A DNA stretch of 64,000 nt from Octopus vulgaris (Eukaryota): the NCBI GenBank assembly GCA_951406725.2, contig OX597827.1, forward strand, positions 44,516,001 through 44,580,000, read 5' to 3'. The position numbers were made by a program, and so were the translations under genes. Below are positions 14,981 through 59,439 of this stretch, one piece after another (position 1 is the stretch's first letter; every line of letters starts with the position of its first letter). Under the pieces are notes generated by a model. That model searched no databases. It was given only the letters and a program-made list of their open reading frames with translations, and was not told the DNA's origin.

Positions 14981-17213
14981 ATAATAATGATGATGATGAT
15001 GATGATTTTGCATTATATTAATGCACAACATGAATATGTCTACTATTTAAATGTGTCATATAAGGTATAGAGCTCGTTCATCATCTTGTCAGCAAAATTA
15101 CATAAATTTGTTACTTTTATAAGCTGGAAGCCAATGGGCAGAGGGAAGACTGCAGGCTTAATATACCACTAACATTGCCTGACCAATGAAATAAAAACAG
15201 ATTCCAATAGCCAGCCGCTATAATGAAGCGAAATAGCTATGTCTATACCCCCCCCCCACGTAATACTTTCAATTCATTATTCATGTGAATTCTGCATAAG
15301 CCAGGTCAGTCCTTGTGTGACAAGCGTAGGGTCAGACATTGCATTGGCAAAGAAACACAAAAACACTGACCACCAGCAGCAGTCATCTGCATTGTAATAC
15401 ACCAAAACCAACACCGACAGATATTGAGGACATTTTCTGACTGGGTAAAATTTGAGAACCAGCAGCAATCTAGTTCTTCATTTCTTTTTGTCTATGTCTA
15501 TCAATTACATTTTCTCTTATTCATTCCAACTCTCTAATTAGGTAATAGGGATAGAGGAACCACTTTCTGCACTTCAAATACAAGTTTTAAAAAAACTATA
15601 TTGAAAAATCTTTTAGCTTAGAACAGAGGGGGTGACAAACAAGACACAAAATCAGAGGAAACAGAAGTAGAGTCCACAATGAAGTTCCAATTTTCAGTTG
15701 ACAGTACTTCACTTCACACTCTCACCATGTTGTTCAGAAAAAACATCATTTTAACGTCCACTTTTTCATGCTTACATGGGTTAGATGAAATTTGCTGAGG
15801 TAGATTTTCTATGGTCAGATGCACTTCATTTTGCCAACTTTCACCACTTCTCAAGTAAGGTAATATTTCCCCATGGTTGGACCTTTTCATGAAGGATTGG
15901 AAATAAATGACACCACTTGCATGATGGTGATGCTCATTTTACAACTATTACATAACGTCAAGACAAGGAGACACAAACACACACCACCATGCATGCACAT
16001 GTATGTGCATGCATGGTGTTGAGAAACTGAAAGAAGCCCTTCTTCTATGACGGGCTTCTTTCAGCTTTCATCAACTAAATCAACTTCGGTTGACCCAGAG
16101 TTATAATAGGTGTCACAAAACAGGACTGAACCAGAAACAACCTTTACTGCACAACCATGCCTATATCCATCATAATTCAACATCTCTAAAAATCCTATGG
16201 CCGTTATTACCAAGAGAAAACCAGTAAAACACTCAGGCATACAAGAAGAAACCGCAGTGTGCAAGTCAAAGAGCAAGCTAGCTTGTGTCGATAACAGAAC
16301 TCACAAACACATACAAAAAACAAAACAAAAAAAAACCCACTGAGGTAACTGAAATCATTCTCAAGTTATGGGGGCAATGAAACTAGCCAGCTCAATTCCA
16401 ACATATGAAACACAAATAAATATACTCAGCATACAGGATTAGTTTCAAATCCTTTATAATCTCCCCATTCAATTTTCTTCCTTTATGTGGACATATATGT
16501 CCACTCTCTTTCCTCAAAATTATCTATTTGAACTCGCTGACATATGAGGTGTATATGACTAACTCTTCTCTACCTGAAAACATCCAACTAACTGTACATA
16601 ACATTTTAACCTCCTCTTATTCACAACCTTTTATTTTTAATCAGGTTACTCCAGTTCTTGTCATAGCAGACAACACTAATTGCTTAATTAGTCAATTTGT
16701 CTTTTCTGAAGCTGTAAAAAAAAGTCGAAGCACACGCTGCTCCAATTATTCCTTTTAACAAACAGACAACAGGTTATTTTTCTCTTTGGCTTGCACGACT
16801 CAAGATTCATTGCCAATATACAACAGCACTTTCAGAAAGCATTCTTCTATACTGATAAGGAACAATTCAACAAAATATCAGGCTACTATAATTACAAAAA
16901 GAGAAAAAAAAGAGTTTCACTGTCAGCTATGAATATGTATTAAAGTGCTTGTCACCTATACAAAGAGAGGATGATTGGTGTGACCAAACAATATGTGGCT
17001 GGCATCCACAATGTATAAGTACATAGTCAACAAAAGCTTCTCAATAATGTTTTAAAATGAGACCATTTCTGCCAACTCTGAAATGAGCACTCCAACTGGA
17101 AAATATCCTGGATGAAAAGACACTTAGTAAGCAGATGATGTCCTTGAGCAGCTATAAAGTCACTACTGGAATACAATGTTAACAAATAAAGAAGCATGGT
17201 GCTTCAACAAATA

Positions 17214-56712: not shown

Positions 56713-57641
56713 CAATTTCTTAGTCTTCTTTCAAAAGTTGATAGGAAAGAAAATCGAGACGACGATTGCAATTCAAACTATCTATTGTATTCAATACGGA
56801 AGATTGGATACAACAGATATAATTTGTAACCAATACAAAGTAAACAAGCACTTATCGGCTCACCAACACCATCACCGCCATTAAAATTATCCTTTTCTCT
56901 TCTTGTCTTTCAATGAAATGAAATTCGTAGCATCATGCAAATAACTACAAAAGAATTATCTTTTTCGATATGAAATGGAATAAAAATTAGAATTTTAATA
57001 TTTTGGAAATATAGCTTAGGATCTTTTCCTTGCCGTTCAAAAGGAAAAGATCCATAGCTTAAAATGGACGGTGAAGCGGAACAATGCATGCAAATATGAT
57101 GAAATTATTACTACACAAAAACACAAAATATGTAAACTATAATAATAACTGTGATAAGATTAAGAGAGACCTGAAGTAGATTTATAATTTTGTAGATTAA
57201 AATTAAAACTCACAAAAGAGCCTAGCAGTCGACGACTAAGGAAGGGATTCTGCATTTAATATTAATTTAAATATAATAATTGTCCAAGTATGGAAGGAAG
57301 AATCAAACTAGATAGATTACAACTGAATACACACACACATTTAGGGAGCGGCTTTTTGCTTTCAAGTTCTAAGGAATGCACACATCACTGAACTAAAATT
57401 AGAGGATTTAAAACAAGTCCTGATCATGGACGTTATTATCATCATTATGTAGGCTGCTTTCTTCCTTTTAAAATCCTATTATTACACACAAATCATTATA
57501 AGTCAATGAGTGTGTGATAAATACAAAACCATACACACTTGGTTGAATTGATATTTTCGTTTGCTGAGCTGAAACAAAAATCAGAAATGTAGGAAGGGCG
57601 GTGTAGAAAAGAAAGTGAAATTAATATTATATATATGTATA

Positions 57642-57685
<44 letters not shown>

Positions 57686-57797
57686 CAATGTAGTATATGT
57701 GGTGGTGGGGAGACAGAGAGCGGGTTTCGTGGAATAAGCAAGAGTAACAGTACTTAATACAGAAATATAAATACTTTTCTGTATTTCATCCTTACAA

Positions 57798-57879
57798 AAG
57801 TGAGTCAAGGACCGAGAGTTTAGTGCTTAGCAATTTGATCAGTGCCATGCACGACTCTCGGCCCCTCGAGTCGTCACTT
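57798..57879 (-). ncRNA. Candidate pre-miRNA hairpin
   Basis: AAGUGA/UCACUU basal helix, ~15-bp UCGAGGGGCCGAGAGU/ACUCUCGGUCCUUGA with one bulge, then GUGC/GCAC and UGGCA/UGCUA and a small loop. A GC-rich island in AT-rich DNA, single-copy in this window. Confidence 0.55.
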
Positions 57880-59439
57880 AAGCAACTTTATACTGATTAA
57901 AAGTATTTTTTTTAAAAGTGTGCGCATACATATATATGTATACGATACATACTCCTATTTTTATTCTCTTATACGTGTGTTTGTGTCTGTGTCTGTACAC
58001 ACTGATCAGCAACTATGAGCATAAGAAACTACACAAAAAGGAAATGACAATCAGATTTCTTGCTTGTGTTAGTTAAGACTCAAGAAACAGATGGAGAAAG
58101 AAATACACATACATTGTACAGCCTTCTCTCTATCTATCACACACACACATATCTATATCCTCCCCTACTTCTTTCATCTTACTGCCCTCCACCAAATCTT
58201 TCTAACCTACTACTACCCTTTCTATCAGACACAAAAATACACGCACCACTCTAACCCTCCTCTTCCTCCTCTCCATTTCTGTACAGTAATAAATTCTACG
58301 CGGCGGTACTCGGGCAGTGTCTATGTGCCAGAAAACAATCTCGGTACTCCTTCATGTCAGTGTTAATTTGCATAAAAGCGGGACCTGGATGATATTATAT
58401 TCTAAGCCCGCCCGCTGCAGAGAAATAGGCAGTGGCAGCGGCTGGTTGGCTCAACTGGGTGGTTCGGTACTAGCAACTTAAACTTTCTATAGCCGTTATG
58501 ATTGTCAAGAGATTGTATGTATGTATATATATGTATGTGTATGTATATATAGAACAGGCAAGCATATTTATCACACACACAGCCAATGCCGATAAAACAG
58601 ACACACGCACACACATTAAAGACACATAACTAACTATGGCTTGAATTTCAAAAATCATACAATAGAAACCGACGGGCAAATCAGAGCTTCAAAGTAGGCC
58701 GGTTGGCATGCTAGAAATAGCAGCCAAATTGCTAGCTACCGCCTTCAAAATATGGAACATTATAGTATGTAGTCCGAACTTACTTATACTTATGTCTGCA
58801 AAAAAAAAAAAAAGCCGGGATAGTCACGACCAGATCGTCAACGCCAACCTTGAGGATTAAAGAACAGCATTAGCATCTAGCATCACAACAACTAAACCAA
58901 ATAAGTGGCACTCAAACAGCTAAAAATAGCAGCAGTACATATATCCCTCAATTCACATCCTCAATATCTTAAAACGAGAGGTCATGGCTACAACACCTTT
59001 TCAATCACATTCGATCGGCCCGATGAGAGCCAACTTGTAACTAACTAAACAACAACAAATACATCAATTCAAACAAAACAATATTTAACAACACAAAACT
59101 TTCATTCGTCATAGGCAATTTAGCAATTTAGTTGGGGTTAATTTTCCTATTCGAGAAAAAAACATTTTGCGGAAATAACACCATAACTAAATGTGTTATG
59201 ATGGCTTAAAGATGTCCACTGGTTGTTTTACTGCCATTTAGTTATTTCCTTCATCTTCAATCCTGTACTACTGATGAAGAAAAAGCCAAGAGATTTTGAT
59301 AATATGGTAACAACTTCCAAGCCACGCCTTGATAAACGATTTTTTTTTCAATATAAAAATATCCAATATATAAAATGTCTTGCACATACTATATAGACTA
59401 TATGTATTTCATATATATATATATATATGAAACACATTG

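Follow-up and report, generated by a model that had tools for sequence, protein, structure and literature searches.

The window analysed in this work is a stretch of 64,000 nucleotides of Octopus vulgaris DNA (contig OX597827.1), in which a hairpin on the minus strand lies at the centre of two copies of a repeat placed back to back, each with what appears to be the relic of a hammerhead motif, and with a (TA)n microsatellite on one side (Table 1). A first-pass annotation, made from the sequence alone, had described the hairpin as an 82-nt fold-back with about 30 bp, and this was confirmed: the minus strand folds into a single stem-loop of 32 pairs and -38.1 kcal/mol (z -6.47), a value equalled by none of 200 shuffled sequences, while the plus-strand fold of the same segment reaches -29.5 kcal/mol (z -3.47). 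In a scan of 31,960 windows of 82 nt the hairpin ranks 17th among non-overlapping folds, those placed above it being simple-repeat folds or two-loop folds. No fold in the window has a lower energy than that at 15985-16066 (-52.3 kcal/mol), where two adjoining near-perfect short hairpins occur, the first of which resembles part of a common SINE-type repeat.

Table 1 Features of the hairpin locus (positions are those of the 64,000-nt window)
Feature	Position	Strand	Basis or remark
Hairpin, middle part of the two back-to-back repeat copies	57798..57879	-	Folding and alignment to the repeat family
Predicted 5p arm, if processed	57841..57862	-	Predicted only; basal UG at -14/-13
Predicted 3p arm, assuming processing with 2-nt overhangs	57809..57832	-	Predicted only; invariant in four relatives
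Repeat copy 1, sense on minus	57720..57832	-	Second-best window hit of the family profile (57832-57721, E 1.3e-6)
Repeat copy 2, sense on plus	57832..57918	+	Highest-ranking window hit of the family profile (E 1.1e-9)
Junction of the 5' ends of the two copies, 1-2 base overlap	57832..57833	.	Both profile hits start at 57832
Broken type I hammerhead	57832..57878	+	Window sequence versus family
Second, partial hammerhead relic	57800..57832	-	Alignment to the family and profile
(TA)n microsatellite	57628..57681	.	About 40 bases outside the full end of copy 1

The stem extends to 36 pairs and is followed by open flanks, and the imperfect stem-loop accommodates two arms of 20-27 nt; this arm length criterion for microRNAs, as well as the Microprocessor motifs considered below, was taken from the accessible text of PMC11701709. 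The 5p and 3p arms proposed in the annotation are both present in the sequence (5p 57862-57841, 3p 57833-57811), but as quoted they leave no 2-nt 3' overhangs when paired: the centroid fold joins base 1 of the 5p arm to the final base of the 3p arm, and an overhang would require the 3p end to lie at 57809. Rfam returned no family for the window at gathering score and, over the hairpin, none at a meaningful E-value.

The arms of the hairpin are widely dispersed in the genome. A 22-base pattern taken from the base of the stem has 646 genomic matches with at most 3 mismatches, versus 23 for its reversed control, a 21-base pattern covering the loop and the 5p arm has 57 versus 0 in the control, and inverted arm ends spaced 40-70 bases apart are encountered at 65 other loci (control 0). 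Contigs from three related organisms match positions 57797-57835 with 4-6 differences and then diverge into other sequence. The 23-base pattern of the 3p arm recovered itself and 2 matches at 3 mismatches (control 1), such a small number being due to divergence of the 3p part of the hairpin. Both arms of the window align to one and the same repeat arm, and in the window the two highest-ranking hits of a profile derived from 77 other copies are 57832-57986 (+) and 57832-57721 (-), which have a common start base; the hairpin consists of two repeat copies joined at their 5' ends. It is a near certainty, on the basis of these sequence comparisons, that the hairpin is repeat-derived, and since this applies to the loop as well as to the two arms, the fold can be explained without invoking a microRNA function. 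Compared to the majority sequence of its subfamily, the window copy carries approximately 8 substitutions and 3 small indels, none of which is compensatory.

When the window copy was folded together with 71 other copies, these 72 loci having been chosen by arm match rather than at random (8 loci, being the window itself, duplicates and chance hits, were dropped), its hairpin ranked 19th, with 18 copies folding better, down to -72 kcal/mol. A stem of 27-36 pairs is present in only 10 of 27 other family hairpins. The annotation had also remarked that G.U pairs favour the minus strand; the gap between the strands does exist, but it is not special to this locus, given that 8 of 26 other well-folding family copies have a gap of at least 8.6 kcal/mol. 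The strand preference of the hairpin is attributable to three G.U pairs, located at single transitions or at a variable site, in what would once have been a near-perfect palindrome.

The majority sequence of the repeat fits a generic descriptor of the type I hammerhead, as did 1 of 20,000 shuffled sequences. The corresponding fold has a helix I of 3+5 pairs around an internal loop, a first core box with U3 and A8, a helix II of 4 pairs closed by G-C, a GAAA box, a helix III of 4 pairs and a GUC site. An exact descriptor of the family retrieved 20 intact copies (control 0), which represents a count and not an independent test, and when the generic descriptor was applied to 1.43 Mb of loci, 26 of the 29 matched loci were family copies. 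Among 31 old copies, 79% of the helix cells are paired versus 20-44% for slid controls; covariation in the hammerhead helices of these same copies is not in excess over shuffles (411 of 500 as high), little covariation being expected because dead copies decay freely. At one pair of stem I, 17 of the 31 copies have U-G and 11 have U-A. The Rfam hammerhead model is not represented among the matches listed (150 of 155, covering 11 loci). The majority sequence is a predicted ribozyme, namely a type I hammerhead with a U3-A8 core, and the comparison of copies defines an old repeat family of this type with 20 intact cores. The twenty copies in which the hammerhead core is fully intact are located at loci L174-L193, and an extra copy in L181 displays a double change in stem II by which the pair is kept. 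A second U3-A8 hammerhead-like motif, dissimilar to the hairpin's family, is common to the minus strands of L099 and L123.

In the window, repeat copy 1 is 5'-truncated inside stem II of the hammerhead and extends to the full 3' end of the family near 57720, where the end motif could be aligned, while repeat copy 2 is 5'-truncated just before the hammerhead core; the right limit of copy 2 is uncertain, as the profile alignment extends to 57986 through simple sequence. On the plus strand, the core of the relic is found at 57835-57841 with a C at position 8 (57840), stem II (57842-57852) is intact, the GAAA box following 57854 is two bases short, and the cleavage triplet at 57870-57872 is followed by a 3-base duplication. 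The relic on the minus strand is devoid of the first core box, its G12 is changed (57822), and so is the stem III base adjoining the cleavage site (57804). Judged from sequence, neither of the two ribozyme copies in the window is intact, and the generic descriptor, when run over the whole window, found no hammerhead.

The way in which family copies begin and end is asymmetric. The end motif of the family has 148 genomic matches (control 0) and the ends sit in (TA)n, TA periodicity extending 12 bases outward from the end in 23-28 of 30 copies. A second end within 1.5 kb was observed in none of 30 copies examined, and among 15 back-to-back loci one full end was found in 12, no full end in 3, and truly both in none, one double hit having been discounted as lying in another repeat. 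Family copies are 5'-truncated to a variable degree, with an inverted partner, the end of which is shorter, at a distance of 0 to approximately 400 nt. In the longer ones, low-complexity sequence continues upstream for 700 nt or more, and the inverted partner is joined to them at various depths. Neither an RT nor a GIY-YIG frame was detected in the approximately 700 nt of upstream family sequence recovered, no full-length copy was found, and the last pattern used for upstream extension gave 27 matches versus 33 for its control. The family may represent either what is left, at the 3' side, of a coding element now extinct or a passenger that encodes no protein, similar to a retrozyme. Three partial direct copies separated by microsatellite spacers are present in L020 and two direct copies with another repeat between them in L181, and the loci fetched contain no clean tandem array of hammerhead-bearing units.

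An arrangement of this kind has been described for Penelope-like elements (PLEs). According to the accessible portions of the corresponding literature, PLE insertions possess an inverted 5'-truncated copy, a tail at one end and a bias towards (TA)n (PMC8557442), the one-ended tail being explained by two RT start points (PMC11167929), PLEs of Schistosoma carry U3-A8 cores and paired hammerheads on opposite strands (PMC4209133), and 31 recently active Penelope-like families are listed for Octopus vulgaris (PMC13282606). The inverted 5'-truncated copy at the 5' end, the one-ended tail and the (TA)n target bias are all seen in the family studied here, for which a Penelope-type hammerhead insertion is likely. 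The (TA)n microsatellite next to the full end of copy 1 is likely a target-site remnant, and it would as such be linked to the window copy.

A coding partner for the hairpin's repeat family was not found. The same genome contains a young coding Penelope-like element, which served as an internal control: of 30 loci, both ends were in view for 10 inverted insertions, and in all 10 a long end is combined with a short one, in (TA)n. The GIY-YIG-like end of this element reaches a Pfam E-value of 0.02, below the cut-off. This young element (L161:2066-3025 on the minus strand; L194-L223) is represented by 150 scored matches out of 21,882 candidates, all of which are 100% identical over 152 aa, and many of its copies occur in inverted pairs. 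At its 3' end an unusual hammerhead-like fold is observed, having a C at core position 4, a palindromic helix III and an extra U before the GAAA box. Sequence likeness does not significantly tie this element to the family: one of five family copies gave z 3.4 and the others z of at most 1.1, and the family profile had no hit to the young element outside simple repeats.

The explanation which we favour, and which we consider probable, is that the hairpin consists of decayed back-to-back copies of a hammerhead repeat, likely generated by a Penelope-type insertion, and that it is probably a non-functional by-product. In such a scheme, a Penelope-like RT/GIY-YIG protein would nick a (TA)n site, upon which its RNA would be copied from two start points near the RNA's 3' end, on opposite strands. 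Both cDNAs would stop within approximately 50 nt of the cleavage site and would then be joined, thereby producing a near-perfect palindrome, which later point changes and small indels would convert into an imperfect one. Decay of the outer left arm would open the stem below 36 pairs, leaving the outline of a pri-miRNA with a stem of microRNA size; this outline would thus result from the loosening of the outer arms by decay.

The alternative that survives best accepts the same repeat origin and adds a later recruitment of the window copy as a lineage-specific microRNA, which we regard as unlikely. The minus-strand transcript would then be processed by Drosha and Dicer, and the mature product would likely be the 3p arm (approximately 57832-57809). 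A canonical animal microRNA is characterised by reads from both arms, fixed 5' ends and 2-nt 3' overhangs. A resemblance to miR-92 in the plus-strand arm, and to miR-252 in the 3p arm, was considered but dropped since the seeds differ and the common letters are repeat-derived. Evidence in favour of recruitment comes from organisms B, C, D and E (four studies), in which the 82 nt of the hairpin have 0, 0, 1 and 0 changes, respectively, and no indel, while the flanks differ. One change in 82 nt against 11 listed events in the 174 adjacent nt (a poly-T run being left out) corresponds to P 0.065, and against 20 events, when 9 unlisted letters of organism E are added, to P 0.003; for organism E alone P is 0.016-0.11, so that the binomial test ranges overall from 0.003 to 0.11 according to which flank changes are counted. 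These relatives are, however, close (approximately 3-6% different), they were found through shared exact 31-mers, which favours invariant runs, and the flanks are richer in simple sequence than the hairpin. The sole change, at 57845, falls in the 5p arm outside a seed and leaves the 3p arm invariant, yet it breaks a G-C pair and no compensatory change is present in the stem. Just outside the stem, at 57791-57792, two letters common to all four relatives are different in the window, which indicates a lineage- or individual-specific double change in the latter.

As regards processing signals, the stem of 36 pairs with open flanks and the basal UG would suit a microRNA, whereas CNNC at +16-18 and the apical UGUG are absent and the GHG motif is partial, a G typical of the family at +5 having been lost from the window copy (motifs according to the accessible text of PMC11701709). 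Precedent for repeat-derived microRNAs is provided by Made1 and mir-548 in the part of PMC1784062 that was available, and 35 Octopus-restricted microRNA families are reported in that of PMC9699675. On the other hand, a squid miRDeep2 list contained no match to either arm, a full-text literature search with words from the arms returned no arm match and one unrelated paper, and the readable supplements of PMC9699675, PMC8125070 and PMC11701709 likewise contained no arm match. No RNA data were present among the sequencing runs listed as matching the stretch, and with respect to a host gene, a Pfam scan of 148 of the 282 candidate frames in the window and the next 20 kb produced one sub-threshold hit. 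Of the pre-miRNA interpretation given in the annotation, the pre-miRNA-like geometry is retained, and the sequence is kept in the four relatives, but the arms and the loop belong to a high-copy repeat.

Another reading takes the hairpin for a MITE with an internal deletion, derived from a DNA transposon that targets TA, in which the arms would represent terminal inverted repeats. It is considered very improbable because of the asymmetry of the ends: while the copies are palindromic, their ends lie beside TA and one copy has a 22-base inverted end, two full ends are almost never seen in the 30 copies and 15 back-to-back loci mentioned above, variable truncation affects one strand and one side only, and a complete hammerhead fold is unexpected in a terminal repeat. 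One 1.8-kb locus with two inward-facing ends would also agree with a MITE, although its interior is composed of other repeats only; at this locus (L110:456-2251) two 45-base inverted family ends are 1.8 kb apart, and L110 was rejected as an autonomous element on account of the same content. Frames resembling, by eye, a Tc1-type transposase are present in L036:1924-3006 on the minus strand. A high-copy match to a MITE had been put forward in the annotation as an observation that would speak against a pre-miRNA; a high-copy repeat match was indeed obtained for both arms and the loop, yet the repeat concerned is not a MITE. Finally, a coleoid microRNA that is old, single-copy and independent of mobile DNA has a next to negligible probability, since the DNA search with a 121-nt stretch, which returned only the locus itself, skips common words and is therefore misleading as to copy number, and three pattern searches and the profile reveal that both arms are repeat-derived.

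Should the hairpin be a by-product of insertion, as we favour, a caution follows: Penelope-type inverted insertions in the octopus genome yield dozens of pre-miRNA look-alike hairpins per family, and such look-alikes satisfy tests of folding energy, of strand bias and of occurrence in close relatives, while a standard DNA search called this hairpin single-copy. The broader proposition, which is likewise unlikely, sees the locus as a functioning microRNA of the octopus lineage that originated in a back-to-back hammerhead/Penelope insertion, and insertions of this type as a source feeding the expansion of coleoid microRNAs. If true, retroelements would be able to generate new microRNAs by a single insertion event, with at least 65 ready-made hairpins supplied by one family, and if the microRNA is real, the origin of many new cephalopod microRNA families would become directly testable. 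In the accessible main text of PMC9699675, the terms searched led to no passage that derives microRNAs from repeats, and a literature search confined to titles and the openings of abstracts revealed no Penelope-derived microRNA hairpins.

With regard to known systems (compared here through the accessible parts of the cited sources), the hairpin's family resembles Made1 and mir-548 (PMC1784062) in that a dispersed palindromic repeat supplies many pre-miRNA-like hairpins. Made1 is, however, a MITE of DNA-transposon type whose two ends are equal, and the products of mir-548 have been sequenced, whereas the palindrome described here would arise at the insertion of a retro-type element and any microRNA product of it is a predicted one. 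Octopus- and coleoid-specific microRNA families (PMC9699675) share with the hairpin its size, imperfect stem and presence in several related species, but they rest on small-RNA reads in two species. A further correspondence is with PLEs (PMC8557442, PMC4209133 and PMC11167929), the hammerhead of which lies in the pLTR and from which the family does not differ in its inverted 5' partner, one-ended tail, (TA)n targets and variable 5' truncation, nor in the type I hammerhead near its 3' end, the U3-A8 core of which is as in the Cercyon elements of Schistosoma. It departs from them in the RT/GIY-YIG frame, which was not found in the family sequence recovered, in a tail difference of approximately 60-70 nt as opposed to 30-40 in PLEs, in a helix III of 4 pairs and a 9-nt loop rather than the minimal form, and in that many insertions are so short that the pair constitutes a palindrome of 80-260 nt. 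Metazoan non-LTR retrozymes (bioRxiv 10.64898/2026.07.22.740005) differ from the family, for which the loci fetched contain no clean tandem hammerhead units and at least 700 nt of low-complexity sequence lies upstream; they are nevertheless similar to it in being non-coding, as far as the family was recovered, in carrying a type I hammerhead, and in their tie to PLEs.
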